The translations under genes and the position numbers were made by a program. Below, in pieces: positions 10,060-45,600 of a DNA stretch of 64,000 nucleotides. Source of the DNA: a virus. The stretch is taken from the IMG/VR virus record IMGVR_UViG_3300036791_000399, positions 1 through 64,000 of that record; one strand, written 5' to 3'. Each line of letters opens with the position of its first letter. The stretch's first letter is position 1. The notes under the pieces were generated by a model. The model did no database searches. It was not told the origin of the DNA and saw only the letters and a list, made by a program, of their open reading frames with translations.

Positions 10060-10285
10060 GATTTTGGAAGACGCGGTCAAAGCGATCAAGAAATCTAGCC
10101 CTGGCGTGAATCCGTGGGCTGTCGGAACGGCTAGCCTCCAACGCGCGGGTGAACTCAAAGCCGGAACTAACCAACCGACCAAGCTCGGCGTGAAGCGTGG
10201 CAAGATGAGTCGCAAAGAGCGTCACGCACATCCGCTAGCGACGGGAGGGGCGGTTAAGCCGTCGCTCGGCCGAGCGGGGCGCTAA
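10052..10285 (+). CDS. Small basic protein ending in ATGG motif
   Basis: MPKILEDAVKAIK...HPLATGGAVKPSLGRAGR. Confidence 0.7.
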   Translation: MPKILEDAVKAIKKSSPGVNPWAVGTASLQRAGELKAGTNQPTKLGVKRGKMSRKERHAHPLATGGAVKPSLGRAGR

Positions 10286-10503
10286 GCGCCAGGACCGTTG
10301 ATCCGCCGAAGGATGTCGGTGCATTCGTCGATCACATTGATCAGTTTGCCGTCGACGGTTTGGATCGAGCAGTGGACGTCGGAGTGCAGAAGGTCGCTCT
10401 GCGGCTTGCGGATTGACACGATCTCTCGCGGGTTGACGTAAATGTCCTGCCCGTCCAGGCTGTGAACCAAGATCAGTATCACGGCGGCGACAAGCAGCTT
10501 CAT
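10282..10503 (-). CDS. FlbD-like small protein with hydrophobic N-terminus
   Basis: LHS/DGQDIYVNPREIVSIR..IQTVDGKLINVIDECTDILRRI resembles the FlbD family pattern. Confidence 0.55.
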   Translation of the reverse strand: MKLLVAAVILILVHSLDGQDIYVNPREIVSIRKPQSDLLHSDVHCSIQTVDGKLINVIDECTDILRRINGPGA

Positions 10504-10972: not shown

Positions 10973-10975
10973 TCC

Positions 10976-13642
10976 ATGCCTGCAGGCCTTGGGGCCATCC
11001 GTCTGCCGGCGTCACCGGTCGACGGAATGGACGATATGGCGACGCCGCCATTCGGCGGCCGCCAGGGCACCGTCGTCATCGACCTGGGGGACGACGAGCC
11101 CGACATCCCCGAGGTCGATACCGACAAGGGCGTCGAGATCGAGGGCGGCGGCGTCATCGTCCGAATCGGGCCTGCGCTCGCCGACAGGAAGAACCTAAAG
11201 TTCAACGACAACCTCGCCGAGGCGATCCCGCGCAATGTTCTTGGCGGGATCGCCGACGAACTGCTGCAGCGCATCGAAGAGGACAATAACTCGCGCCGCG
11301 AATGGCTCGACACCCGAGCGCGCGGCATCGAGATCCTGGGCCTGAAGATCGAGGCTATGCGATCGAGCGGGCCCGATGGCTCAGCGCCCCTGGAGGGCCA
11401 GTCGCAGATCCGCGCCAGCCTCTTGTGTGAGGCGGTCGTACGATTTGGGGCGAACGCCTTTTCCGAGCTTTGCCCGACCGACGGGCCGGCGAAGGTCACC
11501 GAGGACACCGCAGCCTCGACCGCCGATCTCGACGACCTCGCCGACGCTCTGGAGAAGGTGCTCAACCATTACCTGACGACGATCGACAAGCCCTGGGTGC
11601 CAGACACCGACGCGATGCTGTTGCGGGTCGGCGTCGATGGTTGCGTGTTCAAGAAGGTCTATCACGATCCCATTCTCCGCAGACCGATCTCGCGCGCCGT
11701 GTTCGGCGAAGACGTGATCATCAACAATTCCGCGACCTCGATCTATGACGCCAAGCGCATCACGCACCGGGTGATGATGGCGCCGTCGACCCTGCGCCGG
11801 ATGCAATTGGTCGGCGCCTATCGCGACGTGCCGCTCGGCGATCCTGGCTGGAAGCAGAAGGACGCGCCCGAGATTCAGTCGGAGCAGATCGGCGGCGTAC
11901 GCAGGAACGAGAGCTACGAGCGCGACGATCGCGATCACGAGATCTTCGAATGCTACTGCGAACTCGACCTGGAGGGTTTCGAGCACGAGACAGCCGGCGA
12001 ACCGGACGGTCTTGCCGTGCCTTTCAAGGTGGCGATCGATCGTGAATCGAAGGAGGTGTTGGAGATCCGGAGGAATTGGAACGAAGAAGATGACATGTGT
12101 TTGCCAAAGACGTTCTTCGTCCAGTTTCCATTCATTCGAGGCTTTGGAATTTATGCTATTGGCCTCTCGCATCTCTTGGGCAATATTACAAACGGCATCA
12201 CTGCTGCTTGGCGAGAGTTCATCGATGCCGGGATGTTCGCGAACTTTCCTGGCCTATTGGCTGCAAAGGGGGCTGGGCGGCAAGACAATTCTGTAATCAG
12301 GATCCCTCCTGGCGGCGTTAAGGAGATTGAGACCGGCGGCTTGCCGATACAGCAAGTCGTGATGGGAATGCCCTACAAATCCCCCGACGCCACCTTCGTT
12401 CAGTTCATTCAGCAGCTAAACTCAGAGGGCCAGCGCCTCGGCGGCACCGCCGACGTGATGGTGGGCGAGGGCCGTCAGGACGCGCCAGTCGGGACGACCC
12501 TCGCTCTCATCGAGCAGGCGATCAAACCGCTCCTCGCCACTCACAAACGATTGTGCGCCGCGCAATCGGATGAGCTTCAGCTTCTTGTCGAGCGGTTCCG
12601 CGAGGATCCCCAGGCGCTCTTCCGGCATCAGCGGCCGAGCGCCAACGGGTTTTCCTGGGACGAGCAACTGGTTCTCAAGGCGCTGAACACCTACCAGATC
12701 GTCACGCGCGCGGATCCGAACACCGCCTCGCACCTGCAGCGCATGTTGCGCAACGCCGCGCTCTACATGATGGCGAAGGACGACCCTGCCGCCTTCAATC
12801 TGATGACGGTGCGGCAGGTTTGCATCCGGGGCATCGGGTTCGCGAATCCGGCGCAGTTCATCAATCAGAACCCGCAGCCGCCGCCCCCGGATCCGAAGGC
12901 GATCGCCGCGCAGACGACTGCCCAGGCGGCGCTTCTCGACGCCCAGGCGAAGATGGGGCAACTGCAACTCGACGCGAAGAACGCGCCGATGGAGGCGCAG
13001 GCGCGGCAGATGGACGCGAGCGCCAAGATCCAGGCGGCTCACGCCGGGGTGCAGAAGCAGCAGCTAGCCACGCAGACCGCCGGGATGCAGGCGCGTAACG
13101 AGCAAATGAAGCCGGCGATGGAGCAGGCTGGGCGCCAGCACGAGGCGGAGCAGAACCAAGCCGATCGGCAGACCGACATCCTCAAGGAGCAGTTGAAACA
13201 CGCGCACGAGATGCGGCTCGCGGGGATGGAGCAGCAAGGCGACATGCAGAAGGCCGGCATGGAGCAGCAGGGCCGTTTGGCCGAAGTCGGAGCTAAACAC
13301 CAGACTGAAGTTGCTAAAGCCGGGATGCAGCATCAGGCGTCGATGGAGGAGGCGCATCTGCAGCATCAATCCGCCATGGCCCAGGGCGCGCAGGCGCATC
13401 AGACCGAAATGGCGAAGGGGCAGCAGCAGCAGGCCACAGCCATGGCCACAGGCGCGCAGCAGCACGAGGGCAAGCTCGCCGAGATCAAGGCTCAGCCTAA
13501 GCCCGCGGCCGCGGCGCCGAAGCGGGCGACCGGCGGCCGGGTGACGACGCCGTTCGGCGAGGCGCGGCAGGCGCCTGACGGGCACCACTACGTCAAGCAC
13601 CCGATTTCTGGGCAGTACTTCCGGGTGAAGAGGGGCGAATAA
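10976..13642 (+). CDS. Portal protein with long C-terminal extension
   Basis: FNDNLAE..SRREW, FKKVYHD, GFGIYAIGLSHLLGN, DAGMFAN, APVGTTLALIEQ; position after terminase. Confidence 0.9.
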   Translation: MPAGLGAIRLPASPVDGMDDMATPPFGGRQGTVVIDLGDDEPDIPEVDTDKGVEIEGGGVIVRIGPALADRKNLKFNDNLAEAIPRNVLGGIADELLQRIEEDNNSRREWLDTRARGIEILGLKIEAMRSSGPDGSAPLEGQSQIRASLLCEAVVRFGANAFSELCPTDGPAKVTEDTAASTADLDDLADALEKVLNHYLTTIDKPWVPDTDAMLLRVGVDGCVFKKVYHDPILRRPISRAVFGEDVIINNSATSIYDAKRITHRVMMAPSTLRRMQLVGAYRDVPLGDPGWKQKDAPEIQSEQIGGVRRNESYERDDRDHEIFECYCELDLEGFEHETAGEPDGLAVPFKVAIDRESKEVLEIRRNWNEEDDMCLPKTFFVQFPFIRGFGIYAIGLSHLLGNITNGITAAWREFIDAGMFANFPGLLAAKGAGRQDNSVIRIPPGGVKEIETGGLPIQQVVMGMPYKSPDATFVQFIQQLNSEGQRLGGTADVMVGEGRQDAPVGTTLALIEQAIKPLLATHKRLCAAQSDELQLLVERFREDPQALFRHQRPSANGFSWDEQLVLKALNTYQIVTRADPNTASHLQRMLRNAALYMMAKDDPAAFNLMTVRQVCIRGIGFANPAQFINQNPQPPPPDPKAIAAQTTAQAALLDAQAKMGQLQLDAKNAPMEAQARQMDASAKIQAAHAGVQKQQLATQTAGMQARNEQMKPAMEQAGRQHEAEQNQADRQTDILKEQLKHAHEMRLAGMEQQGDMQKAGMEQQGRLAEVGAKHQTEVAKAGMQHQASMEEAHLQHQSAMAQGAQAHQTEMAKGQQQQATAMATGAQQHEGKLAEIKAQPKPAAAAPKRATGGRVTTPFGEARQAPDGHHYVKHPISGQYFRVKRGE

Positions 13643-16600
13643 TGCCCGTCCAGGATTTCGGCGACACTGACGGTTGGACCGCCGAGCCGGTCGATCATGA
13701 TCCGTTCTCTTCTGAAACGAACCCGTTCGTTGCAGGGAATGTAGGGAACGAATCGGGACCGTTTCGGAAAACCGGATTTGCTGGCCACATTGCGGCGACC
13801 TCGGACGCCAGCCATCCGCTCACGGCGCGCTCGCTGCCGTTCGCCGCCAGCCAGCCGCAGGAATCCGTTTCATCGTACGATCCATCCTGGGCCGAGCAGA
13901 TCGAGTCCGGGGTGGGTGACACCGCTGAGAGCGCGGGGATCCCCAGGGTAGGCGCGCAACGGCTCGGGTCGACGGCGCGCACTGCGGCCGAATTTACGCC
14001 GTTCGTCGGCAACGTCCTGGCGGGCAATGAGGCTTATCGCGCTCAGCAGCGTGGCGATCCCTTTGGCGCAGTGCTGCATGGCGCGATGGCGGTGCCGATC
14101 CCTGGCGCGTCAACTGAGGAAGGCGCGGCGCGTCGTTTGACGCCGCTCGGGTTCTATTCGCATGGCGCCGATGTCGCGGCGAACCTGCCGCAGGCGAAGG
14201 GAACGGCCGAGCAAATGCTCTCCCAACTGGGCAAGCGCGGCGTCAAGCCAGAGGAAATGACACGAGCCGGGGTCACCGAAGACAATCTTGCCCTGCCCTT
14301 ATTCGCCAAGCAGCCGATCACCAGAGAGGAACTGGCCGAGCGCTTCGATCAAGCCATGCCAAAGCTTCAGGAGACGGGCTACGGCCAGCAATACTATCGG
14401 AACGACGAGTATGGCGGCGGGACTAAATACGATCAGTACACGCTCCCTGGCGGCCAGAATTATCGCGAGTTGCTGCTGCATCTGCCGGAGGGGCAGGAAA
14501 CGACGCCTCGCCAGGGCTACGCCATTTTCCACGCTAGCAATGACGACCGGACCCCGGAAAGTCCTGTATTTGCCACCGAAGCAGAAGCGCGGCGCGAGCT
14601 TGAACGATATCCGCCCAGCCTCGCCTATGAGGTTAGAGATGCGCCGTTTAAGGGAGAGGGCGAGGGGGCAGGCGATTACCAAAGCTCCCATTGGGACGTC
14701 CCCAATGTCGTCGCTCACTTGCGGATGTCAGATCGGAAAGGCACAGGTGGCGAAAACCTACTGCACCTTGAAGAACTGCAAAGCGATTGGGGGCAGGAGG
14801 CGCGAAAGGAAGCGGAGGTGAATAGGGTCGCCCCTGGCCCAAGCGATACCGGCGTCCCTAACGCTCCCTTCATTGGCTCGACTCAAGGCTGGACGGATCT
14901 CGGTCTGAAGCGGGCGCTGATTGAGGCTGCGCGCGGCAATTACGATGGCTTGATTTGGACTTCGGGCGCCGATCAGGCGGCGCGCTATGACCTCTCCAAA
15001 CAGATCAGCGATTTGTCGTACAGCCCTGACTTCGGTTCTTTGCAGGGGCGCACCACGCGGGGTTATCGAGGCATCAACGAATCCAACATTCCGCCCGAGA
15101 AGCTGGCGGACTACGTCGGCGCCGAGACTGCGAAGAAGCTGCTGGGTACGCCGCTTGGCCCGCATTGGAATGCTGGGGGCGGGGCTACATTCGAGGACGG
15201 CTGGCACACGCTCTCCGGCCTCGATCTCCAGACTGGCGGCGAGGGAATGAAGGGCTACTACGACCGCCTTCTTCCGAATCGGCTCGCAACGCTGACCAAA
15301 AAGCTCGACCCCGACGCTAAGGTCGGCACGACGCGGGTTCCAGGCTTCCTGGATTTGACCCCCTTTCGTGAAGGAGGCGGCCAATATTCGGTTCAGAACC
15401 GCGCAGGCGACTTCACCGATGCGGGACCGCGCTTCAACAGCAAGGCCGAGGCGCTTGACGAGATCGCGCGGCGCAAAGCCGCCGATCCTGGCAAGGAGTT
15501 CCAGCATCTCCCGATCACGCCGCTGATGCGTGAGAAGATCCTCAAGGGCCTGCCGCAGTACAAACGGGGAGGGAGAATCGCGATGGCTGACGGCGGCGCA
15601 TCTGACTACGTGCCAACCGGTTCCGTCACTTTCGCTCATGGCTCCCTGGAGCCGGTCGACGGGGATCCTTTCCCCCCTGCGCCTCAAGTCCTGGACAGCG
15701 ACATCAATCGCGCCAAGGGCTTTCCGGAGCCGCGCTCGCCGATGCACGATCGCATCGCCGCCGCCTCCCAGGACGATCATGGCGACGCGCCAGCCACGGG
15801 CGTCATCTCGCCCGAAGCCATGTATCAGCAAACCCCGCACTCGACGGAAACGCTGGCGCACTACGCCGGCAACCCGGAGCACGCGATGCCGCTGCGGATC
15901 GGCGCCGCGGTGGGCGAAGAGGGCAAGCGCATGGGCCAAGCGCTGTGGAGCGCCGCTACGGCTCCTGGGGACGTGCTCACCGGCAAGGCGAGCATGGCGG
16001 ATCCGGAGACGCAAAATCGGGTCATAGGGCTGGCTGCGTCGTTGCCTGGAGGAGGTCCGGAGGCGGCGCTCGGCGCTCGCGGGCCGGTCGGCGCTGCTGC
16101 CAAAGCCGCAAAGCGCGCCCCAGCGGAGCGCGAGCTTAACACCTGGAACGCAGAGACTGGCCAATGGGAGGGCCCAAAACCAAAGATGAACCCGCCGGAG
16201 GGCGTGACTTACCCGCCGCTGTTCAACCTCGACCCAGAGGTGATGAACAAGGTGCCGGATGTCCCCCAGTTCGACTTGCCGCGCTATGACCCGCCGCGCG
16301 GCGTCTCGGAGCGGATGCGCGACTTGGTGACCAATCCGGATGTCCGGAAGCAAATGATCCAGTTGGTCCGCAACGGGATGCAGACCGTTGGGCTGAGTTG
16401 GTACAATACTGGCCAGCTACGCGCCATGTTCTTGAAGGAACTGGGTGACACTGAGGGGCAGCAGGCTTTTGAGAAGTACATGAATCTCGTGTCAGCCACG
16501 AGTCCTGAGAACAAGATCCCGCAGAACATCAGAACAGCTAGCCATTTCTATGAGAGAGACGCGCAAGGCGTGCCGCCGCCGGAACGAGGCGATCCAATTG

Positions 16601-17298
16601 CGCAGCCCTACGGCTCTAAGGCGCAGAAGCTTCACCAGCAAAACGTGAAGAACGTCCTAACCGAAGGCTATGACGTCCTGCAAAATCCGAAGCCGCCGTC
16701 TTTCGTTCAGAACCTGATGGGTAATTACGCCCCTGGCACGATGGACCGGCACGCCTTCAAGCTCCCGGCGATGCTGTCTCGTGATCCGCGCTTCCTGGAG
16801 ACGTCGTTCACGCCGGAGAAAGGCGCGGCGCCGGTGCGCCCCCAAGAGATGTATCGAAACGGGAAGCTGACGATTGACGATGCGGTCAATCAGCCGACCA
16901 TGTGGGCGGGTATGCCGAACAAGAACGAATATGCCGCGCTTGAGGGCTACTACAAATCGATCGCCGATGAACTCGGGATCACGCCAGCCCAGGTGCAGGC
17001 GTCGGCCTGGGTGGGCGGCGGACACGTCACGGGGCTGGCCTCAGCCGCTGACGAGACGTTCCTGCATTCTTTCCAGGGGAGAGTCTTCAACACTGCGCAC
17101 CATACCGGGCAGACGCCCGCGGAAGTGGTCAGGAAGATGATTCGCGGCGAGCAGCCTTTGTTGGCGGGCGGGCCGGGAATGGCACCAGTTCTCCCGCAGG
17201 GTCAGGCTCGGAAAGAAGCTCAAACTTCGACGGCTGGGGCGGGAGCTTTGCCTCCGCAACCATCTGATCAAGAACTTCGCGAACACCCGTTTTATTGA
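13642..17298 (+). CDS. Large two-module (polyvalent-type) virion cargo protein
   Basis: Module 1 with YTLPGG..NYRELL, SHW, EELQSDW; module 2 with WY..SATSP..PK..SF..N..MDRH..QASAW; both start with EPVDxDPF. Confidence 0.75.
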   Translation: MPVQDFGDTDGWTAEPVDHDPFSSETNPFVAGNVGNESGPFRKTGFAGHIAATSDASHPLTARSLPFAASQPQESVSSYDPSWAEQIESGVGDTAESAGIPRVGAQRLGSTARTAAEFTPFVGNVLAGNEAYRAQQRGDPFGAVLHGAMAVPIPGASTEEGAARRLTPLGFYSHGADVAANLPQAKGTAEQMLSQLGKRGVKPEEMTRAGVTEDNLALPLFAKQPITREELAERFDQAMPKLQETGYGQQYYRNDEYGGGTKYDQYTLPGGQNYRELLLHLPEGQETTPRQGYAIFHASNDDRTPESPVFATEAEARRELERYPPSLAYEVRDAPFKGEGEGAGDYQSSHWDVPNVVAHLRMSDRKGTGGENLLHLEELQSDWGQEARKEAEVNRVAPGPSDTGVPNAPFIGSTQGWTDLGLKRALIEAARGNYDGLIWTSGADQAARYDLSKQISDLSYSPDFGSLQGRTTRGYRGINESNIPPEKLADYVGAETAKKLLGTPLGPHWNAGGGATFEDGWHTLSGLDLQTGGEGMKGYYDRLLPNRLATLTKKLDPDAKVGTTRVPGFLDLTPFREGGGQYSVQNRAGDFTDAGPRFNSKAEALDEIARRKAADPGKEFQHLPITPLMREKILKGLPQYKRGGRIAMADGGASDYVPTGSVTFAHGSLEPVDGDPFPPAPQVLDSDINRAKGFPEPRSPMHDRIAAASQDDHGDAPATGVISPEAMYQQTPHSTETLAHYAGNPEHAMPLRIGAAVGEEGKRMGQALWSAATAPGDVLTGKASMADPETQNRVIGLAASLPGGGPEAALGARGPVGAAAKAAKRAPAERELNTWNAETGQWEGPKPKMNPPEGVTYPPLFNLDPEVMNKVPDVPQFDLPRYDPPRGVSERMRDLVTNPDVRKQMIQLVRNGMQTVGLSWYNTGQLRAMFLKELGDTEGQQAFEKYMNLVSATSPENKIPQNIRTASHFYERDAQGVPPPERGDPIAQPYGSKAQKLHQQNVKNVLTEGYDVLQNPKPPSFVQNLMGNYAPGTMDRHAFKLPAMLSRDPRFLETSFTPEKGAAPVRPQEMYRNGKLTIDDAVNQPTMWAGMPNKNEYAALEGYYKSIADELGITPAQVQASAWVGGGHVTGLASAADETFLHSFQGRVFNTAHHTGQTPAEVVRKMIRGEQPLLAGGPGMAPVLPQGQARKEAQTSTAGAGALPPQPSDQELREHPFY

Positions 17299-17745: not shown

Positions 17746-17760
17746 AGTGCCTCCTGTTGA

Positions 17761-18499: not shown

Positions 18500-19393
18500 A
18501 TGCCAGCTAGCCTCACGCCCAAAGATCATACCTCCGCCGTCCTCAAGCGCATGAACCTCGCCGGGTCGATTCCCGGTAATCTCGACCGGAATAACGATGC
18601 TCAAGCGGACAACTACGGTCTAGCCTCCGCCCGCTCGTCCGACGCTTCCAGTTTTAAACTCACCGGAGCCCCGAAATCGCCTCACATGGGGCGCCCTGGC
18701 AGGCAGGCTGGCGGCCGGATCTCAGGCGATCTTGTCCGCACCCGGCGCACTCCGCGAGAAACCGCCGCCGATATCGCGGACGAAGAGAGGACTGTCCAGG
18801 CGCTCGCCAAGGACCGCGCGACCGGCGGCCGGATCGGGCGCTCGCTCGGCGGCTCGGCGACCGCCAAAGACGAATACACCCAAGCCGGGAGGACGATGAC
18901 CAACGAGGACGCCTCCGGGAAGGATCGATTTACCGGCGGAGATTTCCCTCCCAGCCACGCTAGTGGCGGCCGGGTCGGCCGCGCGCATGGCGGCCGCACC
19001 GCCAAGGGCAAGACCACAGTCAACGTGATCATCGGGGGACAAAAGGCCAATGCGCCGACGCCTCCCATGCCGCCACCGCCGATGGCCGCTCCCGGACCCG
19101 TCGGCCCGCCTCGTCCGCCGCCAGTGATGCCGCCTCCCGGTGGGCCTCCTGGCGGAATGCCGATGGGCGGCGCGCCTCCGGGCATGGCTGGCGCCTCACC
19201 TCCCGGCGCTCCGCCGATGCTCAGAGCGCGCGGGGGGAGGATCGAGGCCGAAACCGCCGGCAGGCACGACTTCGGCAAGGCCGGCGTCCACAGTTTCGGC
19301 AAGGGGGGCACTAGGGCCGGGGTCAGCCTCAAGCGCGAGTACGGATCTGGCAGCGGCCTCGGCCGCATGGAGATCGCGCGCAAGGAGAAATGA
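18500..19393 (+). CDS. Low-complexity head-region protein with multiple AxGG motifs
   Basis: RQAGGRI, RATGGRI, RSLGGS, HASGGRV, RAHGGRT, RARGGRI; KTTVNVII; Pro/Met-rich segment. Confidence 0.75.
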   Translation: MPASLTPKDHTSAVLKRMNLAGSIPGNLDRNNDAQADNYGLASARSSDASSFKLTGAPKSPHMGRPGRQAGGRISGDLVRTRRTPRETAADIADEERTVQALAKDRATGGRIGRSLGGSATAKDEYTQAGRTMTNEDASGKDRFTGGDFPPSHASGGRVGRAHGGRTAKGKTTVNVIIGGQKANAPTPPMPPPPMAAPGPVGPPRPPPVMPPPGGPPGGMPMGGAPPGMAGASPPGAPPMLRARGGRIEAETAGRHDFGKAGVHSFGKGGTRAGVSLKREYGSGSGLGRMEIARKEK

Positions 19394-19611
19394 TGCTCGA
19401 TGCGTCGTCGCTCTATTTCGGGCGCAGGCTCCTGGAGATGATTCAAGAGAAACAACTCGAAATGCAAAAGCCGCTCTTGTCGGGGGCGGCGCTCGATTAC
19501 CCCGACTACAAGGACCGCGCCGGGTATCTGCGGGCCTTAGCCAACGTCGTTAGCTGGATGGAAAAGATCAGCCTGGAGGAGGAAAACACTCGTGGCGCAA
19601 GTAGCCTATAG
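19390..19611 (+). CDS. Small conserved head-module protein
   Basis: LLSGAALDYPDYKDRAGYLRAL; directly before the GroES-like gene. Confidence 0.7.
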   Translation: MMLDASSLYFGRRLLEMIQEKQLEMQKPLLSGAALDYPDYKDRAGYLRALANVVSWMEKISLEEENTRGASSL

Positions 19612-20005
19612 GGTCGTCCATAAAGAGGATCCGCGCGACGCAATCATGCGCGACCTCGGCTCGCTTGATGGCTTTGACATTGCCGCGCAAGGCGTCCTCA
19701 TCGCCACCTACGAGCGCTCCGACGATATCAAAACCGAAGGCAACATCATCCTCCCCCATGCTCATCTGAAAGAGGATGAGTTCCAGTCGCGGGTCGGCTT
19801 GGTGGTGAAGCTCGGCCGGCGCGCCTTCGTCGATGACGAGCATATCCAGTGGCACGGCTTCCGCTGCGACGTCGGTGATTGGGTCGTCTACCGGCTGTCC
19901 GAGGGCATCAAGATGCAGATCCCCGGCCCTGGCGGGGTCAAGTGTCGCTTGATGTCCGATGCCTACCTCAAGCTCAAGGTTTCTCATCCAGATGCCGTAT
20001 TCTGA
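19592..20005 (+). CDS. GroES-like co-chaperonin
   Basis: KTEGNIILP mobile loop, VGLVVKLG, CDVGDWVVY, RLMSD. Confidence 0.8.
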   Translation: MAQVAYRVVHKEDPRDAIMRDLGSLDGFDIAAQGVLIATYERSDDIKTEGNIILPHAHLKEDEFQSRVGLVVKLGRRAFVDDEHIQWHGFRCDVGDWVVYRLSEGIKMQIPGPGGVKCRLMSDAYLKLKVSHPDAVF

Positions 20006-20007
20006 AA

Positions 20008-33138: not shown

Positions 33139-33329
33139 CCATGCAGCTTGTCTACACAGACCCCGACAAAACCACGATCAAGGTGACGCTCGATGAGGGC
33201 GAGAGCCTCGGCAACCTCAATGGGCCGGTCGAGGCGTTCGTCCCGACCGATCGGGCCAACACTGACTATGCGGCGATTCTTAGCAAGAAACTGAAAGTCG
33301 AATCTCATAAAGCGAGCCCTCCAGGATGA
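33135..33329 (+). CDS. Small fibre-associated protein (possible assembly chaperone)
   Basis: FVPTDRANTDY motif directly after the last fibre. Confidence 0.6.
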   Translation: MTMQLVYTDPDKTTIKVTLDEGESLGNLNGPVEAFVPTDRANTDYAAILSKKLKVESHKASPPG

Positions 33330-34571: not shown

Positions 34572-37500
34572 ATGCCATTTATGACTGTGAAATTAATTCC
34601 GGGGGTCAGGGCTGAACAGACGCCATTGTTGCTACAGACTGGAATTACACAAAGCAACAACATTCGCTGGCGCGATGGCCTCGCGGAGAAAATCGGCGGC
34701 TGGAAGAAGTTCTACAACGCGGCGATTGCCGGCCCGGTGCGCGAGCTATGGACGTGGGCCGACCTGGACGGCGCCAACCATCTGGCGGCCGCGGGCGGCA
34801 ATAACGTCAATGTCATCACCGGCACTTCCCTAAGCCCGGTCGGCCCGCTCGCCGCAACTCGACATCCGAGCGGATTGGCGACGACCGCCGGGTCGCCGCT
34901 CGTTGTGGTCACCGACACCGGTTCGAACGCTAGTACTTATGAAAGCGTCACCCTGCAGACCCCCTATGCCATTAGCGGTGCAGGTGGCTTCGTCATCTAT
35001 CCAGGCAGCTATCCGATCGTCGCCGTCGCTGACGGTTCTCACTACACGATCAACATCGGCCAAAACGCTACTCTGACCGCCTCCACTGGGACGCTCTGCA
35101 CGATCAGCAGCACTCTGGGCTCGGCGACGTTCACGGTCGCTCTTCCGAACCACAATCTTGCCGTCGGGGCGAGCTTCTCGATCATTCTCCCGACTGCGGT
35201 TGGCGGAGTGGTGCTGTCAGGCTTCTATACGGTCGCTTCGGTTGTCGACTCCGGCCACTTCACCATCATGGGGCCGAACCAAGCAGTATCCGCCCAGACT
35301 TCGAACTACGGCAATCTCTCGACTACCCAACTCATCCAATGGGTCGTTAAAAGCCAACAGCCTCCGCCAACGCTTACGGCCATTGCTGCATTCGCGTCTG
35401 GTTATGCGGGCATCATGATGCCGCCGAACCCCGGCAACATTACGCCAGGGATGACGGTGTACGATGAGACAACCAACCAGACACTCGGCATCGTGCAGAG
35501 CTATGGCCCGCTGACGGCCAGTCAGACCCTGACCAATGGGTTCGCCTCTGGGGCGACGTCGATCAACATGGCGCCCAATACGAACACGCTTGGCGTGATT
35601 CCCGGCATGACCGCTACGATCAGATCATCGCTCTTGGGCACGGTTTCAGCCTATGTCGGCAGTACGCTCACCCTGGCCGCTGCTACGACTTTCCCGTCCA
35701 CGTACAGCATCACAGCCTCGGCTGCGTTTACGACCGCCTACCAGGGCATCATGGTGCCGCCCAATCCAGGCTTCGCAGCCGCAGGCTTGACTGTCACCGA
35801 CCTCACGACTGGCCACTCGCTCGGCACGGTCGCGACCTACAAGAATTACCCGATACTGACCGATCTTGTTCAGTTCGCTAATCACTCCTGGGTGATCGGC
35901 GCGACCTCTGTCGACATGACCCCCTACACCAATGCTGGCAATGGCGGCGGCGGTGATAATCCCATCATCCCCGGCATGACGATTGGTGACTCCAATGTCG
36001 GGGGAGGCACGGTCGTCCTCAGCACGGTCGGCGCCTATATCGGCCATACGCTCACCTTTGCGACTCCGGCTGCATACAGTTCTGCTACAGGCTTTGACCG
36101 GCTTGAATTTCAGACCACCGGGACGCAAAACGTCCTCGGCCTGACAGGCAACATCGCCGCCAACAGCGCCGGATCCAACGACACTCTGGGGTTCGTAGGC
36201 GCTTCGATTTCCAATGATCCGGTGACGTTCAGCAGCGGATCCAATCACGTCCTGATTTTCACTGCGCCTCTCAGCACCAGTAGCGCCGGGGCGAACGATG
36301 TCCTGGCGTTCATCGGGGCATCGGCGCCGCCGCCGACTGTGACAGCGCAAGCAGGGTTTACGACCGACTACTGGGGCATCGCGGTGCCAGCTAACCCAGG
36401 GCCCATTGTCAATGGCATGTCGGTTGTCGATCAGACCACCAATCAGTTTCTCGGCACGGTCGCAAGTTACGGGACGGTGACGAACGCTCGGCAAGTAGTG
36501 GCATGGGGAATGGCGGGCGGCGAAGGCACTCCGGTCGGCATCGGCGAGACTAGCGCGGACATGACCCCCTATACGAACCATTTTCCAACACCGATCATTC
36601 CCGGCATGACGATCGTCGACCATGATCAGAGCAAGACTGTCGGCACAGTCGTCAGCTACATCGGCAACATCCTGACCTGGACGCCTGCGATCACCTTCAC
36701 TGCAGATCCTGGCGATGAGTGGCTGTTCAGCAGCGGGACACAAAACGTCCTCGGCTTGAACACCTTTCTCGATGCCAACAGCGCCGGATCCAGCGACCTC
36801 CTGTCGTTCATTGCTCCATCAGGGCCGCCACCGGCTGGCACAACGCCGATGTCGGCCGACGATTGGTGCATGTTCAATTTCGGCAGCGTCCTTCTCATCA
36901 ATCCGCAAGACGGGCCGATCTTTCAGTATGACCCGACGAGCGGCCTTAGCACTGCGCAATTGGTTCCGAACGCGCCGGTCGCGGCGCATGGCATGTTCCT
37001 CGCCATGCCGCAGCAGATGGTGGTCGCCTACGGCGCCTCGGTCCAGGGCGTCCAGGATCCGATGCTGGTCGCTTGGTCCGACGCGGGCAACTACAACACC
37101 TGGAAGCTCGCCGTCGGCAATCAGGCCGGAACCTTTCGCTTGTCGCGCGGCTCGATGATCGTCGGCGGGATGCAGATGCCGATGCAGGCGATGCTGTGGA
37201 CCGACGTCGGTCTTTGGCTGATGACGTACATCGGTTATCCGGATGTCTGGGGGTTCTCCGAGATCGCCCAAGAGTGCGGGCTGATCGCCAAGAAGGCGGC
37301 GGGCGTGCTCGGCTCCCAGGTCTTCTGGATGGGCAGGGATAAGTTCTGGACATTCACCCAGGGCCAAGTTCAGCCGCTCCCGTGCGAGGTCTGGGACGCT
37401 GTCTTTCAAAACCTCAATACGGATCTCCTCCACCTCATTCGCTGCGGCACAGACACCGCCTTCGACGGCGTCGGATGGTTCTATCCGTCGCTCGCGACGA

Positions 37501-38081
37501 AGCAGCCAGGGGCGCTGCAGGAGAACGATTCCTTCGTCAAGTTCAACCGGGTCACCGGAGAGTGGGACTATGGAACGCCGATCGACGTCTTTGGCGACGG
37601 GAAGACCGGCGGCTCCCTGATCTCCGACTGGATCGATGCGAACGTGTACGGCAATCCGATCTCGGCGATGACCGATTCGACCGGCACGCTCTCGCAACTC
37701 ATGTGGATGGACATGGGTCAGGACGCCGATGGCGCGCCGATCGATTGGTGGTTCCGCACCGGTCTTTTCCTGCTTAGCGAGGGCGAAGATTTCCTTTTTG
37801 TCGACCGCTGCCGGCCTGACTTCAAATGGCGGAAGTTCTCAAGCCCATCGACGCCGAGCGCGCAGATCAAAATCACCTTGTACGCCTACGAGGACAGCGA
37901 CAATCCGGCGAAGCCGCCTTCCATCTATGGGCCGTTCACCGTCGCTGATGATTCGGGACCGTTTGACCCGAGAGCGCGCGGGCGTTACTTCTCGCTGAAG
38001 GTAGAAGGGAACGATCTCGGCAGCTTCGCCCGCATGGGTGCGGTGAAGTTTCGCTTTGCACCGGACGGAAGGGCCGGGTGA
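34572..38081 (+). CDS. Tail nozzle (tubular protein B / stabilisation protein-like) with large inserted repeats
   Basis: KLIPGV, RWRDG..EKIGGW, VAWSD, VFWMG, LPCEVWD, WFYPS, RARGR, C-terminal PDGR. Confidence 0.8.
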   Translation: MPFMTVKLIPGVRAEQTPLLLQTGITQSNNIRWRDGLAEKIGGWKKFYNAAIAGPVRELWTWADLDGANHLAAAGGNNVNVITGTSLSPVGPLAATRHPSGLATTAGSPLVVVTDTGSNASTYESVTLQTPYAISGAGGFVIYPGSYPIVAVADGSHYTINIGQNATLTASTGTLCTISSTLGSATFTVALPNHNLAVGASFSIILPTAVGGVVLSGFYTVASVVDSGHFTIMGPNQAVSAQTSNYGNLSTTQLIQWVVKSQQPPPTLTAIAAFASGYAGIMMPPNPGNITPGMTVYDETTNQTLGIVQSYGPLTASQTLTNGFASGATSINMAPNTNTLGVIPGMTATIRSSLLGTVSAYVGSTLTLAAATTFPSTYSITASAAFTTAYQGIMVPPNPGFAAAGLTVTDLTTGHSLGTVATYKNYPILTDLVQFANHSWVIGATSVDMTPYTNAGNGGGGDNPIIPGMTIGDSNVGGGTVVLSTVGAYIGHTLTFATPAAYSSATGFDRLEFQTTGTQNVLGLTGNIAANSAGSNDTLGFVGASISNDPVTFSSGSNHVLIFTAPLSTSSAGANDVLAFIGASAPPPTVTAQAGFTTDYWGIAVPANPGPIVNGMSVVDQTTNQFLGTVASYGTVTNARQVVAWGMAGGEGTPVGIGETSADMTPYTNHFPTPIIPGMTIVDHDQSKTVGTVVSYIGNILTWTPAITFTADPGDEWLFSSGTQNVLGLNTFLDANSAGSSDLLSFIAPSGPPPAGTTPMSADDWCMFNFGSVLLINPQDGPIFQYDPTSGLSTAQLVPNAPVAAHGMFLAMPQQMVVAYGASVQGVQDPMLVAWSDAGNYNTWKLAVGNQAGTFRLSRGSMIVGGMQMPMQAMLWTDVGLWLMTYIGYPDVWGFSEIAQECGLIAKKAAGVLGSQVFWMGRDKFWTFTQGQVQPLPCEVWDAVFQNLNTDLLHLIRCGTDTAFDGVGWFYPSLATKQPGALQENDSFVKFNRVTGEWDYGTPIDVFGDGKTGGSLISDWIDANVYGNPISAMTDSTGTLSQLMWMDMGQDADGAPIDWWFRTGLFLLSEGEDFLFVDRCRPDFKWRKFSSPSTPSAQIKITLYAYEDSDNPAKPPSIYGPFTVADDSGPFDPRARGRYFSLKVEGNDLGSFARMGAVKFRFAPDGRAG

Positions 38082-38082
38082 T

Positions 38083-38310
38083 ATGGCTCCCCTATCGGGC
38101 TTAACGGGCGATCTGCAGACCGTCGTGACTGCTTTGCAGCAGTTGACGGTCAAGGTCGGCGATCTCATCAAGCAAATTTCGCTCTCGGCGCCGCCGGCAA
38201 ATATCGCCGGTCTCGTGAATGCGGCGAACGATAGCGCCGCAGCCACCGCAGGCGTGCCGGTCGCGGGCATGTACCGGAATGGCAGCGTACTCATGGTTAG
38301 AGTGACGTGA
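38083..38310 (+). CDS. Small tail-associated protein
   Basis: AANDSAAATAGVPVAGMYRNG motif. Confidence 0.65.
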   Translation: MAPLSGLTGDLQTVVTALQQLTVKVGDLIKQISLSAPPANIAGLVNAANDSAAATAGVPVAGMYRNGSVLMVRVT

Positions 38311-39041
38311 TGCCCGGTTTCAATCCAATCCCCTCCAGCATTCAGATCTCGCGGATGTTGCGCCGGCCGCCGGCTGTCGGGGGCATCGGGTTCCACTCCG
38401 GCATTAAGCAGGCGCCGTTCCCCTTAAAGCGGGCTTTAGGTGGGTCCATCCCCGACAATCCGATGACGCCGGTCATCGGCGCCATCAACACGGCGACCCC
38501 AGGGCGCGCCGACGCGCACCCGACGCACGTCCCGCCTGGAAGCTACGTCATGCCTGCCGACCTCGTCTCGATGATCGGCGAAGGCAACACCGCGGCAGGG
38601 CAGGCGATGCTCGCCAAGATGTTTCTGCCGATACAGGCTCAGTCGACGAATCCGATTGCGCAGATGCGGGGCGGCCCGCCTGGAGGCGGGGGTGCGCCTT
38701 TCGGAGCCGAGATGCCGGGATTGCGATCGAAGCCGATGGGTCCGCCACGGCCGATCGAACCGACAATCGTCGGCGAACCCAAATATCCGATCTACGCTGG
38801 GCCCGGTAAGCAGGGCCCTAACTTCGTCCAGGCGCATGGCGGCGTCGTGCAAGGCTCTCCGGACCAACCGGGCACTCCGATCAACATTAGCGGCGGCGAG
38901 TTTGTGATCCCTCCGCAGGAGGTCAAGCGTCGGGGGCGGGGGGACATCAACCGGGGGCACGAGATCCTCGACGCCTGGATGAAAGACCTCCGCCAGGAGC
39001 ACATTAAGACGCTGAAGAAGCTCCCAGGGCCAGCGACGTGA
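38307..39041 (+). CDS. Protein with duplicated AxGG...G[SE][YF]V domain
   Basis: RALGG..PGRAD..GSYVMPADLVS and QAHGG..ISGGEFVIPP. Confidence 0.75.
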   Translation: MMPGFNPIPSSIQISRMLRRPPAVGGIGFHSGIKQAPFPLKRALGGSIPDNPMTPVIGAINTATPGRADAHPTHVPPGSYVMPADLVSMIGEGNTAAGQAMLAKMFLPIQAQSTNPIAQMRGGPPGGGGAPFGAEMPGLRSKPMGPPRPIEPTIVGEPKYPIYAGPGKQGPNFVQAHGGVVQGSPDQPGTPINISGGEFVIPPQEVKRRGRGDINRGHEILDAWMKDLRQEHIKTLKKLPGPAT

Positions 39042-39589
39042 GCAAGAAGTTCAGCCACAACAATCGGCCGCCGAAACCGCCGACGGATCTCTCCCACATT
39101 CGGCTCGCTGGAGAAGCCGATGAGATGCAGATCTTCAACTTGTGCAGCCTGATGCACGCGGAGGTCGGGCTTCACCCGCTGGACTGGCCGAAGATCGCTG
39201 CCATGATCCGGCTGGCGACCATGCGAACGCGGGGGATCGTCGGCGTCATTGGCGAGCCGCACGATCTCAAGGCGGCGATCTTCATGATGATCGAGCCGGT
39301 CTGGTACAGCAGCGCTTTCGTTCTTTTGGACTACTTCACTTACGTCAGGCCTGACGCTCGCCAGAGCACCTACGCCACCGACCTCATCGCCTATGGCAAG
39401 CAGTGCGCTGACGGCCTCGGCATCGATTTTGTTTGTGGCGTATTTTCAACTGTTCGTACAGAAGCAAAGTGTAAACTCTATCGCCGCGTGATGCCGAAGG
39501 TCGGTGAGTTTTATCGCTATCAGCCGAAACCGGAGACGGCAGAGCTTAGCCATTTGTCACAAACCGCCAACCGCGTAGCCGCAGAGTAG
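39038..39589 (+). CDS. GNAT-family acyltransferase-like protein
   Basis: IRLA, WYS, FTYVRPDARQSTYA..LI; directly before the first ejection protein. Confidence 0.7.
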   Translation: MSKKFSHNNRPPKPPTDLSHIRLAGEADEMQIFNLCSLMHAEVGLHPLDWPKIAAMIRLATMRTRGIVGVIGEPHDLKAAIFMMIEPVWYSSAFVLLDYFTYVRPDARQSTYATDLIAYGKQCADGLGIDFVCGVFSTVRTEAKCKLYRRVMPKVGEFYRYQPKPETAELSHLSQTANRVAAE

Positions 39590-39601
39590 TGGAGACTTGC
39601 G

Positions 39602-42600
39602 ATGGGCTCGGTATGCGGAGGCAGCAGCAACCAAACAACGACCAATTCGAGTTCGCCTCCGCCGCAGACGCAGGCTGACTACCAGGGCTTAATCAATCGC
39701 GCGACCGCGGTCGCGAACACGCCCTACACCCCCTATCCCGGCGAGCAGGTCGCCCCGCTCAGCAATCAGACAAACACCGGCCTCGCCAACCTCAACCAGT
39801 ACGCCTACGCCGCTCAGCCCTATCTGCAGAAAGCGGGCCAGATGACGCAGGGCGCTGCGGCGCCGGTCACTCCGCAGGCCTTCTCCGGCTCGGCGGTCGG
39901 CCAATTTGAGAACCCGTTCACGAGCGACGTGATTCAGGCGACGCAGAACGAGTTCAACAATCAGAACGCTCAGCAGGCGCAATTCCTCAATAGCCAGAAC
40001 ATTGGCGCGGGCGCATTCGGCGGTGATCGGGCGGGCCTGTCGCAGGCGATCTTGGCCGGTCAACAACAGACAGCCCAGGCCCCGGTAATCGCAGGCTTGA
40101 ATCAGGCGAACTACAATCAGGCGCTGGCGGAGTTCAACAATCAGCAGCAGACCGGCCTCGGCGCGCAGGAGTTCAACAATCAGCAACTCGGCCAGATGGC
40201 CAATCAGTACGGCCAGATCGGCCAGGGGATACAGACTGGAGGCCTGCAGGGCGCAACCGGCCAAATCACCGGAGGCATGGTCCCGCAGGGCGAACAGCAA
40301 GCGATCGACACCGCGCTGCAGAACAACTGGAACCTCGGGCAGGCTTACCCGTATCAGTCGACCGGATTCCTCGGCAACATCATCGAGGGGATCGGAAGCC
40401 AGCAGGGTGGGGTCGGGCAGACGACGTCGCCGGGGCCGAGCGGGCTCAGCCAAATCCTGGGCGCCGCCACCGCGGGCACGGGCGCGCTGTCGAACCTGTT
40501 CGGCTCTGCCGCTGGGGGCACGAGCGCGGCGGCCGGGATCGGCACCGCGCTCTCTTCCCTCTTCGGCTTCTCGGACGAGCGCCTGAAAGAGAACATCGTC
40601 CCGGTCGGCAAGACCTTCGACGGTCAGACGATCCATAAGTACAACTTCAAAGGCGACCCCAGGACCCAGATCGGGTTGCTCGCGCAGGAGGTCGAGCGGC
40701 GCCATCCTCATGCCGTCGCCGAGGGCCTGGGCGGCCTGAAGGGCGTCAACTACGACGCGGCGACGAGAGAGTCCGAGCGCGCCGGTTTCGCGGACGGCGG
40801 CGTTTCCCCCGGCTCGATCTTCGACCTCGGCGTCGGCAAGCAGGCGTCTCCGGCCGGCGCGCTGGCGTTGATGGGTGTTCCTGGCGCGAGCGCGGGGACG
40901 GGTCGGTTCGGCGCCGGCTCCCTGTCCATGACGCCAGGGGGCACGCTCTTCGGCCGCGGCGAAGCGCCGGTATCCACCGGAGGCAATGGACCGTCGCCTT
41001 CCAATCCCCTCCAGGGCGGCCCCTGGCAGCATCCCGCTGCGCCGTATACCGCCCCGCAGCCAGGGCCGATGCTAGCGCCTCGGTCCGGAGTGCAAATGCA
41101 AGCGCCAGCGGGGCTGGCCCATGGCGGTCGCGCAGGTTTCGACATTGGCGGTCCGACCGGGCTCGGCAATGTTGACATGACCAACATTCCGAACACGCCG
41201 TTCGTCGATTTCTCGACCCCGTTTGCGATTGCCCAGGGCACCGGGGTTCCAGGCCCCAACGCCGGTATTGCGAATATCGAGTTCTCCTCGGCCAGTGAGG
41301 CGGGAGGCGGGAACAAAGTCTCCGGGCAGACGATCGGCACGTCGAACCTCGCGCCGTCGCAGATCAATCTCTCGGGCGCCCCTCCTGGCACGACCTTCGC
41401 GCCGATCGACTATCAGAACCCAGGCAGCGACTTTCAGACCGCAGGCGCAGAGGCGAGCCTCGGCCCGCATTATTTCACCGTCGGCAAGAATGGTGAATTG
41501 GTCTACGGCGGCGAAGGCACGGGCCCGAGCGGCAGCGTCAATCAGGGGGAGTTGCTCCCTCGTCCCGGCGGGAACCTGCCTACCGACACGCCGAAGACTG
41601 AGAACGCGCCGCCCGTCGCCGCGCCTGCGGCTGGTCCTGCTGCTCCTGCGGCTGGTCCCGCTACGCCCGTTATCCCAGCGGGGGGTCGCTCAACGGGGTA
41701 CAGCGCGAGGGCCATAGCCAACAACCCGTGGCTGGCGAATATGTCTATTCCGGGTGATGCGTTGACTGCTCCCCAGGCCCATGGCGGCCCTGGCGCAGGC
41801 GCGAGCGGCGGTGGGGCGGGCGCGGGCGCGTGGACTGGCGGCAGAATGCCCTTCCAAGGCGGTGGAGGCCTCGATGACCCCCGCTACAGCTTCTATACGC
41901 CGACGACCGGCAACGCGCGCGGGGCGACCTATCATCCGCCAATCCCGACGCCGCCCACTCCGCAACCGATATATACGCCGCGTCATGTCGTGCGTCAGCG
42001 TGCGCCGGTCGCTCCGCCGCCGCCCAGGAACTACCCATTGCCTCCGCCTCGGCCGCAGGATCCGCCGCCGCCGCCCACAGTGGCCGCCGCTCCGATGCCG
42101 CTGCCAAGGCTGGATGATTTTCCGCCTCCGCACCCGGACTTCACCGCCCCCAGGTCGGTCGTCGACCCGATGTCTGGAACGAATGCGGGAATGAACCCGC
42201 CACAGGCTGGCGGGAGCATCTTCCATTCCCTCTTGCCCGCCATGCAGGGTCCGCGTGGCTACACGGCGTCGCCGCCGTCCGACCCCGATCCAGATAGGGC
42301 CCGAGGGATCGATATCGCCAGAGGCCTCCTGGACAACCGTCCAGGCTTTTGGAACTCGGGCGGCGTGATGGGCCAGATGCCGCTCGCGGGCGCCACCGGT
42401 TACACGCCGCAGGGCCAGGGCGTGACTGGCTTTGACAGCCAGGGCGCGGCGATGGGCTCGGGCAGCGTGGCGAAGAAGGCTGCGGGCTTCGACGGTCTGT
42501 TCGGCTCCGGTCTGCGCCAGGGCGGTCGCGTGAGCTTCGCGGACGGCGGTCTGAGCGGGCTCGGGATAGATCCGTCTGGGGTGCCGGTCATCCAACCGAT

Positions 42601-45600
42601 CCCCTTCGATATTCTCAAGGGTGTCCAGCCGTTGCCGGTGGGCAAGGGGCCGCCGCATCCGACCGATCCGAAGCAGCAGCAGTCGTCCAGCGACGCAGCG
42701 AATACCGGCGGGGCGCTCGGCAAGAGCATCAGTTCGCTCGCGAACGCTTTCAAGGGCAGCGGCAGCGGCGACGATGCCCTCGACGCCGCCATTCCGTCAG
42801 ATCTCTCCGGCGTCGACATGAGTGGCGATTTTGCCGCGTTGCCTGACGACACCTTCGACTTTGGCCTTGGCGGGATCGTACGACCGCATTTTGACGATGG
42901 CGGCGGCTCTACCGGTGATGGCGGCGACGGCGATGGCGGCTCTACCGGGTTCGGCGGCGGCGACACCGGATTTGGCGGCGACACCGGATTTGGCGGGATG
43001 GGGATGAGTGTCGGTTATGCTGGTTCTCCGACCGGTCCTGGCATCGGGTCTGACGCCGTGGCGGGGGGAACGGCGGGCGATACTGGCGGCGTCGCAGCAG
43101 GGGCCGGTCCTCACGGCACCGCAGGTGCTGTCGGTTACGGCGGCGGGAGCGTCGGCTATGGCGGGACGCATGGCGGCGGGACGGCAGCGGGCAGCGCAGG
43201 AAGCGCAGGTGCTGGTGCGGCTGGCCCAGGCGGGGCGGGCCCTGGCGGAGGCACGGGCGGCGGCGGACATGGAGTGGGTGCAAGTGCAGGAGCGCCAGGA
43301 AACGTCGTAGCAGGCGATTCGCCTCGCGCAATATCTACGGCACTCGAAAATGCGCTGCATCAACAGGCGCTAGACGCGCTTTACGGGATGCAGCACAGCA
43401 GCCCAATCGGCAACCCGCTTACGGAATTTGGAGTGCAGAGGGCCGGTGGGGTTAGCACAACTGGCGTTCCAGGCCTCAATTCACAGTCAATCGCTGATCT
43501 CTCTGGACAGAATGGTCCAGCTGCACAAGTTGCGGCTCGTCAGGCAAGGGCGGGGGTCGGTGCCCCTAGCCCAGGGCTGAGCCCTGCTGTCATTTCGGCG
43601 ATAAATAACGGAATGCGTACAAACGCATTTAACACTCGTCCGACAGGAGCGGAAAGCGTAAGCACGGCCGGTTTGAGCGCGCCCAGGGCGGCTCCGGCTG
43701 TGAGCACGTCGGTGAGCCCGTCAGTAAGTAAGCCGCCTAGCTTTGAGATTGCGCCGACTTATTCGTTTGCGCCGCGAGGCACGCCTGTTTCCTCGCCCGC
43801 GAATACGCCGACAGCGTTCGCGCCCCGAAACACGCCGACGGTCATCGCTAATCCTGGCGACACCACCCCAGGCCTCGGAGGGCTGACCACAGACCCTGGA
43901 AGCACCCAGCCAGCCGGGGGACGGATACCGGGCCTCGCCGTCGCAGGCGACCAGTATGCGCAGCAGGTGGGGCATGGCGGCCGCTGGGGCGGCGGCAGAA
44001 TTTCCTTCGGCCTCGGAGGAATTGCACGATCTGGTTATGCTGATGGCGGCACGCTTCTCGGTCCAGGTCCGCCCGCGCCTCCGGAGCCCCCGGAGCCTGC
44101 TCCGACCGCTCCTATTGCTCCTGCCGCGCCCCTGGCGGAGGCCGCGCCTGCGCCCGCATCGTCCGCATCGTCCGCATCTCCGTTCGTCAAGCCGACGCGC
44201 GAGCAGGTGCTCGCCTACAATGAGTCGATCGCGGCGAAGCACGGGAATAACCCGGACGTCGTGCGCAAGGTGCTCAGCGGCGAAATGGGGGGGAAGGATC
44301 CCTATCAGGTCGGCGACGCCGGATCGAGTTTCGGCCCCTGGCAACTGCACGAGGGTGGTATCAACCCGGCGATGAACCACCCCGGCATGGGCGACGAGTA
44401 TAAGGCCGCGACCGGGCACGATCCGAACGATCCGCATTACTGGCAGGAACAGAGCGACTTCGCGCAGTCGAAGATGGCGGAGCGGGGCCTGCAGCCCTGG
44501 GCGACGACGGCTGGCAAGCTCGGCCTTGGCCGCTATGCCAACTTGAACGCCGATGCGCCCTCCGGCGGTGCGCAGCCCGTCCAGGCGGAACAGGCGCAGC
44601 AGCAGACGCAGGCAGTGATGGACGACGCCGAGCGGGCTCCGGACAGGCGGATGATCCAGCCGAGCGTTGGCGACGCCTTGATGGCGGCCGGTTTCGCGAT
44701 GATGGCGGGCACCTCGCCGCACGCCATGGTCAACATAGGCCAGGGCGCGCTGGAGGGCATGAAGTACTACCAGAACCAGCGACAACTCGATCGCGAGTGG
44801 ATGAAGAACCAAGCTGAGATCGACAACTATGGCAGCGAGGCGCGCTATCGTGATGCCCAGACCTCTATCGCCACCCAGAACCTGAACATTGAAATGTACA
44901 AGGCCAAGCTCGGCCAGTGGAACGTCCAGTATCAGGGCTGGCTGGCGGCTGGCGGTCATGGCGATCCGCCTCCGATGCCAGCGTTGCCGACGTCGTTCGG
45001 CGGGTCGGCGACCACTAAGTCAGCGGCTGCGGCTGCGCCTGCCCCAGCGCCAGACTCAGCAGCGGCTCCGGCTCCGTCACCCACTGCGGCCACTCCCGCT
45101 CCGACCTCGACTGGCCCTGGCCCGCTTGTAGCCCCTAAGAAGGCCGCTGGAGCCCCTCCAGTTGCCGCGCCTACCGCGACACCCCCGAAGGCGGCAACGC
45201 CAGCCCCTGCGGCTCCTGCGGCTCCTGCTGACACGACTGCGGCTGCTGGTGCGCCATCCGGTGCGCCTGGGCCGACTGATCCGTTCTGGAAGAGCGTCCC
45301 TGCCGATCAGAACCCCTACGAACTGATCCGCTTGGCGAAGCTCTATCGGGCCGGGGCGGGCGTTAACCCCGAGAACGCGAAGACGGCGGACGAGTATGAA
45401 GCCCGCGCCCATTCCATCTGGGACAGCGGCATGGCTGGCGGCGTCCAGATCCCCGGCGTCTCGCAGCAAAAGGCGACGACGAAGTATAATGAGGAGATCG
45501 CGGGCGAGACTGGCAAGGAAGACGCCAAGCTCCCGGCGCAGATGGATAAGCGGGCTGAGATGGACACTCAGCTAAAGGAAATGCAGCACCTCATGCTGAC

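Follow-up and report, generated by a model that had tools for sequence, protein, structure and literature searches.

A short glycine motif recurs in the virion proteins of a phage represented by the IMG/VR virus record IMGVR_UViG_3300036791_000399. The window analyzed here is the first 64 kb of this 74,075-bp record, which is an estimated 99% complete and contains 62% guanine plus cytosine (GC). The motif has the form x-Ala-x-Gly-Gly-Arg-Ile/Val, is frequently doubled as GGR[IV]x[F/R]xxGG, and is found at approximately 25 sites in seven proteins. It is a real, phage-specific feature that is enriched, conserved in position at the protein level, and located at module borders. It is also exchangeable with the self-cleavage site of the Peptidase_S74 domain. 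Sequence comparison suggests that the motif may be a site of proteolytic maturation at the joints between modules of virion-borne, expelled proteins, and we see about an even chance that this is so. What we infer is the cleavage itself, its position, and its enzyme.

A Gly-Gly motif enriched in virion proteins

Enrichment was measured against shuffled sequences. The 32 proteins of the virion block contain 13 copies of GGR[IVLM], versus 1.31 expected from per-protein shuffles (0 of 2000 reach 13). With shuffling restricted to windows of 30 amino acids (aa), which keeps the local Gly-rich composition, the expectation was 1.41 and the maximum 7 in 1000 shuffles. The doublet GGR.{5}GG occurs 7 times, versus 0.12 expected from protein shuffles and 0.08 from 30-residue-window shuffles, and the looser pattern of the preliminary description gave 12 occurrences versus 2.3 expected. 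Enrichment amounts to approximately 10-fold for the single motif and 60-fold for the doublet, and is seen in virion proteins only. GGR[IVLM] is absent from the 65 open reading frames (ORFs) outside the virion block, in agreement with the earlier remark that the motif does not recur in replication or accessory proteins. Every example quoted in that description was found at its place. The patterns were defined after inspection of the data, but the enrichment is seen again in two relatives, G001 and G002, and in homologues of the ejection protein. In the relatives, all GGR[IVLM] copies except one lie within the same orthologous carriers, and 120 ejection-protein homologues contain 82 doublets versus 0.8 expected.

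A back-translated pattern for GGR[IVM]xFADGG was used to scan IMG/VR. It gave 52 matches, each of them in frame. With the exception of one match in a frame of approximately 80 aa, the ORFs concerned are 321-2217 aa long. The matches share the consensus [FY]A..GGR[IVM]GFADGG, behind which an acidic run is found. Among the carriers are ejection proteins of the S74 type, a protein with ART-PolyVal, and one that combines lysozyme, LPD23, and GP88 domains, the last two being polyvalent virion proteins as understood by Iyer et al. 2017. The notion of a code peculiar to this phage had to be abandoned, as the matches are spread over viral contigs of 31-70% GC. The same pattern applied to 596 Gb of bacterial and archaeal genomes gave only 9 matches, most of them in short chance-like frames, with one prophage-like case. 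No Pfam family covering the motif was found, and none lies over the AxGG...GEFV stretch of the tape measure proteins gpH of lambda and pb2 of T5. Literature searches with words and with letter strings turned up no account of the motif, and the letter strings returned primer sequences only.

All seven carriers are encoded on the plus strand. They are mutually unrelated and share only the motif and their composition, save for a 77-aa and a 131-aa protein that have a stretch of approximately 59 aa in common. The earlier description of seven otherwise unrelated proteins is right for most carriers and wrong for this pair.

The portal protein (888 aa, 10976-13642, phrog_1216) has RATGGRV at 13523-13543, followed by an end piece of 32 aa (13544-13639). 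R-A-[T/A/S]-G-G-R-V is invariant at 9 loci and in 18 protein clusters, despite indels in the Q-rich stretch just upstream. Among relatives, the codons of the portal motif show 6 synonymous and 0 non-synonymous changes. Because codon usage also varies between motif copies, the constraint acts on the peptide and not on the DNA. The C-terminal extension of the portal (approximately 260 residues, 12830-13640) is absent from cultured relatives, in which the match stops near aa 620. It consists, in this order, of a Q-rich, repetitive, helix-like region with indels, the motif, and a conserved 32-aa end (TPFGEAxxAPDGxxYVxHPxxGQYFRVK).

The 1218-aa cargo protein (13642-17298) is mosaic and polyvalent-like, with DUF7178 at aa 914-1041. 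Its doublet KRGGRIAMADGG (15562-15603) divides two modules, each of which opens with an EPVDxDPF tag (13684-13707 and 15649-15672). Its relatives are 1041-2217 aa long and have only pieces in common, with BLAST borders that begin or end at the doublet (own aa 643 corresponds to G001 aa 704). Behind the doublet stands ADGG[A/S]LEPVEGNPF, which is similar to the native N-terminus DGWTAEPVDHDPF of these proteins, and each cargo module therefore starts like a separate protein. In every post-portal cargo protein, including those of L009, L006, G001, and G002, a tag of the form EPVD[H/F/G][D/N]PF is found approximately 10-20 residues behind the N-terminus and is repeated right after the internal GG doublet. 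This tag may be the true portal- or capsid-binding address of each cargo module.

Several copies are carried by small proteins. The basic 77-aa protein (10052-10285) has LATGGAV at 10235-10255, then KPSLGRAGR at its C-terminus, and its ORF is kept in 6 relatives at 62-86% identity with the motif retained. The basic 131-aa protein (24363-24758) has RARGGVV (24393-24413), KRGGRL (24519-24536), KATGGGI (24588-24608), and RKVGGGV (24648-24668). A Gly/Pro/Arg-rich protein of 297 aa (18500-19393), probably head-internal, has five sites that include two doublets (18704-18721, 18815-18859, 18956-19000, 19223-19243). It has no family match, and its homologues (269-601 aa) have 3-7 copies of GGR[IV]x[RK]xxGG with variable inserts between them. 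A search of the four small carriers against Pfam at E ≤ 10 gave nothing. A second short motif, P-[S/H]-[L/M]-G-R-[A/P]-G-R, adjoins the GG motif in the 77-aa, 131-aa, and 297-aa proteins (10259-10285, 24627-24650, and 18680-18703, respectively) and looks like an AT-hook.

The 244-aa protein (38307-39041) is encoded upstream of the ejection genes. It contains two mutually homologous modules (GSYVxPAD... and GGEFVxxP...), and the motif precedes each of them (RALGG, 38430-38450; QAHGG, 38829-38849). Both GG pairs are at least 90% conserved in 128 homologues. In an AlphaFold model, the modules have predicted local distance difference test (pLDDT) values of 85-97, and the motifs, with values below 50, form linkers directly before the modules. 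Together with the BLAST borders that start at the doublet, this bears out the earlier observation that the motif sits at domain boundaries. The 244-aa family is found beside, or C-terminal in, motif-bearing proteins at 23 of the 51 loci detected via the motif alone. A sequence search of the PDB returned nothing for this protein, and fold searches with the model gave no match (Foldseek E > 8; VIA-align best Z 3.0), so a role as the protease has no support from the model. Gly, Val, and Asn/Asp make up most of the residues that its two modules have in common with lambda gpH, and such a set looks more like a structural than a catalytic one.

Exchange of the motif with the S74 self-cleavage site

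The largest carrier is an ejection protein of 2181 aa (39602-46147) that matches phrog_4287, a DNA ejection protein family, over aa 7-387. It consists of an N-domain, an internal Peptidase_S74 domain, and then modules with motifs between them. Motif sites lie at 40787-40807, 41114-41152, 41831-41866, 42515-42556, 42860-42904, 43910-43927, and 43985-44056. In G001 and G002 the doublets hold their position at a local three-way identity of only approximately 0.2. The motif keeps its place while the sequence on either side of it diverges.

Peptidase_S74 is an intramolecular chaperone domain, detected on the plus strand at 40562-40786 (aa 324-368; PF13884, 27.5 bits versus a cut-off of 22). It carries the self-cleavage motif FGF|SDERLKEN, in which the bar marks the cut and SDxRxK is present, and is closed C-terminally by RAGFADGG. 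In most homologues, AERGH[FY]AxGG follows directly after S74. Such domains usually stand at the very C-terminus of a fibre or spike, whereas in the 2181-aa protein the domain is internal, with approximately 1790 residues behind it.

The family of the ejection N-domain has 5902 representatives, and 57 homologues could be anchored at the junction behind it. An S74 site is present in 48 of these 57. All 8 complete homologues without S74 have [A/S/N]-[R/T]-G-G-[R/V]-[I/V/A] at the exact S74 site, as in L|ARGGRI, L|ATGGRV, and L|SRGGRVGRDMGG. The remaining homologue is a truncated fragment with neither S74 nor the motif. Upstream of S74, the motif is found in 0 of 48 cases (Fisher P = 7e-10 for exclusivity). 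G001 and G002 show the same S74 and motif pattern, with well-aligned flanks. As with S74 of the endosialidase and tail-fibre type, the domain in the 2181-aa protein stands at a domain border, and the GG motif holds that border in the S74-less orthologues. The two elements differ in kind: S74 is an autocatalytic, folded domain of approximately 75 aa, whereas the joint is made up of 7-13 residues and depends on a reader from outside.

Six orthologues of the ejection protein (P0133, P0159, P0170, P0172, P0179, and P0206) have six different wall hydrolase domains (Phage_lysozyme2, SLT, GH108, Phage_lysozyme, Hydrolase_2, and VanY). Each hydrolase domain has AxGG 20-80 residues upstream, as if the wall-cutting enzyme were exchanged as a cassette.

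Proposed proteolytic maturation and competing explanations

Cleavage is favored because the motif matches a mapped cut in T5 pb2 and replaces a self-cutting S74 domain. The T5 cut was mapped by mass spectrometry after R1127 and gives pb2* and pb2C (Linares et al. 2023, PMC10038345). The sequence at this cut is FVPR|AEGGMMYPG, and pb2 contains only 2 AxGG in 1219 residues, so that the chance of a random bond falling exactly there is approximately 0.002. Both pb2 and the proteins studied here are virion proteins expelled at infection, the T5 cut has the form x|A-x-G-G proposed here, and a C-terminal module is split off. In contrast, pb2 is the tape measure of a long tail with a single site, whereas the present phage is short-tailed and has approximately 25 sites in seven proteins including the portal.

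The preliminary description was correct that lambda gpH carries FATGG and YATGG. The gpH sequence has AIGG (706), FATGG (733), and YATGG (778), then GEFV...GxGN, and a motif-level match to the 244-aa modules, GE[FY]V...GxG[ND], is visible at 752-775. Processing of gpH yields gpH* and gpHC, with cut site and protease not established (PMC12617516). A cut at S705|AIGG or F733|ATGG would leave 77-80 kDa, which fits the reported gpH* of approximately 78 kDa. The likeness consists of AxGG followed by a GEFV...GxGN stretch like that of the 244-aa modules, with a cut in a Gly-rich region. The differences are that gpH is a tail and not a head protein and that its site is unmapped, so the link is one of fragment-size consistency only.

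A third precedent is gp7 of P22. The host oligopeptidase A (OpdA) cuts it after residue 20, and its new N-terminus is KGGKG (Conlin et al. 1992, cited in PMC8402733). This cut, E20|KGGKGG, directly precedes a basic GG doublet. The 20-aa leader is dispensable, and procapsid binding takes place via residues 21-154. A podovirus ejection protein, gp7 is near the 244-aa protein in size and gene position, and its short leader is removed by an enzyme of the host and not of the phage. There is no detectable homology between them, and the register and doublet spacing are unlike. The 244-aa family was considered as a gp7 homologue and rejected (hhalign probability 1%).

Two further systems invite comparison. 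Polyvalent proteins of phages and conjugative elements are large, mosaic, and virion-packaged, and their processing into units has been predicted, with built-in metallopeptidase domains as the proposed agent and no mention of a glycine joint (Iyer et al. 2017, PMC5512222). The 1218-aa cargo protein resembles them as a multidomain protein encoded next to the portal gene, with pieces shuffled between relatives of 1041-2217 aa. It differs in that no such metallopeptidase is present. Its only family match is DUF7178. Of the domains typical of the class (LPD, ART-PolyVal, MuF, and metallopeptidase), ART-PolyVal and LPD23 are found in carriers on other contigs. The adenovirus protease, a cysteine protease of the virus itself, cuts several unrelated virion precursors at (M/I/L)XGG|X, after the GG. 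One short GG consensus across unrelated virion precursors is the common feature (here seven carriers with one related pair). In contrast to adenovirus, no viral protease was found here, and the T5 and P22 precedents are cut before the motif.

A Pfam scan of 80 ORFs revealed no peptidase except S74 among the families listed, which leaves room for a divergent enzyme. Peptidases of the S78, S49, ClpP, and M3 families are absent from the 74-kb genome. The earlier statement that no canonical prohead protease is visible holds for S78, S49, and ClpP, and had overlooked Peptidase_S74 inside the 2181-aa protein. Since the phage encodes no suitable protease, a host peptidase is the probable reader of the motif. 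Of 14 control genomes, 11 have M3 peptidases, so an enzyme of this type is widely available.

In the mechanism that we propose, the joint marks where one independently folding module ends and the next begins, in the tail of the portal, the cargo protein encoded after it, the small basic head proteins, and the ejection proteins. A cut just N-terminal of Ala (x|A-x-G-G-(R)-(I/V), with x|A-x-G-G found at approximately 20 places in the window) would split long precursors into these modules. The predicted products are the end piece of the portal, the separate modules of the cargo protein, small basic peptides cut out of the 297-aa protein, and the leader of the 244-aa protein. From the 2181-aa protein, an S74 chaperone remnant and downstream modules would arise, and a second cut at AERGH[FY]AxGG behind S74 would free the downstream chain from that remnant. 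The reader would probably be an enzyme of the host, by analogy with oligopeptidase A and P22 gp7.

Several points weigh against proteolysis. The link to T5 and lambda is made through a short motif, since a hidden Markov model of the 244-aa family gave no hit to gpH or pb2 at E ≤ 10. RALGG in T5 pb2 (aa 138-142) and ATGG in P22 gp7 (aa 109-112) are not reported to be cut, so the motif is not sufficient alone. The register of the known cuts also differs, being two residues before GG in T5 and one in P22. Oligopeptidase A normally takes short peptides, a preference that suits the release of terminal pieces but not cuts inside a protein of 2181 aa. Finally, a plain flexible linker in place of S74 would give the same pattern of exchange if release of the N-domain is non-essential.

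A serious rival is an uncut but specifically recognized joint, that is, a conserved hinge or linker that serves independent folding, threading of the unfolded chain through the portal and tail channel, and cassette exchange by recombination. We regard it as clearly less probable than cleavage, at somewhat over a quarter. The low-confidence linkers of the 244-aa model, the position of the motif at mosaic breakpoints, the variable copy number between homologues, and the T5 and P22 copies without a reported cut are all in line with a hinge. However, flexible linkers rarely fix the positions of Ala, Arg, and Ile/Val, and RATGGRV stays the same in 18 portal clusters while its codons change synonymously. 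A hinge also leaves unaccounted for that all 8 S74-less proteins have the motif precisely where S74 would be cut, and that T5 is cut exactly at the motif.

A docking or packaging tag is improbable. Such a tag would recruit or position cargo by binding a partner in the particle, which might be the interior of the capsid, the barrel of the portal, or the GEFV modules in the 244-aa protein. It would agree with the confinement of the motif to particle-internal proteins and with its co-occurrence with the 244-aa family, and the Gly-rich cargo-loading peptides of HK97-fold encapsulins bear a loose likeness to the motif. However, the same motif is present in the lambda and T5 tape measures, which are assembled in tails and never enter the head, the P22 leader is dispensable for a protein that binds procapsids through other residues, and the internal, repeated placement is unlike that of a terminal tag. 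The preliminary description had offered a maturation-cleavage site or a head-loading signal. Its first half is supported by comparison (R|A-E-G-G in T5, KGGKGG in P22, and all 8 S74-less orthologues), and its second half finds no support, in view of the tail proteins and of P22.

Contact with nucleic acid, through an RGG-like or AT-hook-like motif of internal proteins lying on packaged DNA, is very unlikely. The carriers are basic and Gly/Arg-rich, and GRAGR or GRPGR adjoins the motif in three of them, but many copies are followed by acidic runs (FADGG and DDDD), Arg is frequently missing (FADGG, YADGG), and neither the placement at junctions nor the exchange with S74 would be explained. The 62% GC of the genome and the 11-21% Gly of the carriers might suggest that the motif arose by chance from Gly/Arg-rich composition and high GC, or that it is a repeat at the DNA level. 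This is refuted by both shuffles, by contigs of only 31-37% GC that have the motif, and by the differing codons between copies.

Genome context and meaning of the joint

The gene layout is that of a temperate short-tailed phage, with a podovirus-type module of SU10 adaptor, nozzle, and phrog_4287. The window encodes the large terminase (1205-2938, phrog_38), a major head protein with a weak match (22868-23782), an SU10-type adaptor (33326-34075), a nozzle-like protein of 1169 aa (34572-38081), and the ejection gene block (38307-49121), together with an integrase and replication genes. Family searches found no tape measure family. The portal and cargo region gave no megablast match to GenBank phages, and the nearest GenBank or cultured phages have only 27-47% identity in the portal core.

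Some neighboring genes are of separate interest. A GroES/Cpn10-like protein of 137 aa (19592-20005; PF00166, phrog_3188) is encoded between the portal and head genes and is kept in relatives as distant as L014 and L015. Between the genes of the 244-aa and 2181-aa proteins, a further gene (39038-39589) encodes 183 aa that weakly match an acetyltransferase (phrog_1249). In the Pfam scan of all ORFs, two proteins (5650-7264, as first noted for PEP-CTERM) matched the PEP-CTERM motif, and two matched collagen triple-helix repeats.

The tape measure and ejection proteins of lambda, T5, and P22 were recognized 50 years ago to mature by proteolysis, and cleavage of injected virion proteins is of an already known kind. 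What is new is that the joint extends to the portal and to head-internal, cargo, and ejection proteins in a phage that lacks a tape measure, that its spread is phage-specific over a range of GC contents, and that it and S74 replace each other in a mutually exclusive way. More tentatively, and with well under an even chance, the GG joint may be a system common to short- and long-tailed phages of many hosts, in which swappable modules would be separated by a conserved host peptidase during assembly or after ejection and the joint would stand in for S74. If true, this would tell where lambda gpH and T5 pb2 are cut and by which protease.

The coincidence of the motif with one mapped tape measure site yields predictions of sites, namely S705|A706 or F733|A734 in lambda gpH and approximately 20 in this phage. 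If the motif is cut, it would explain how strings of exchangeable enzymes are delivered into the host as one gene, and it would provide a simple annotation rule for the mature virion proteins of metagenomic phages.

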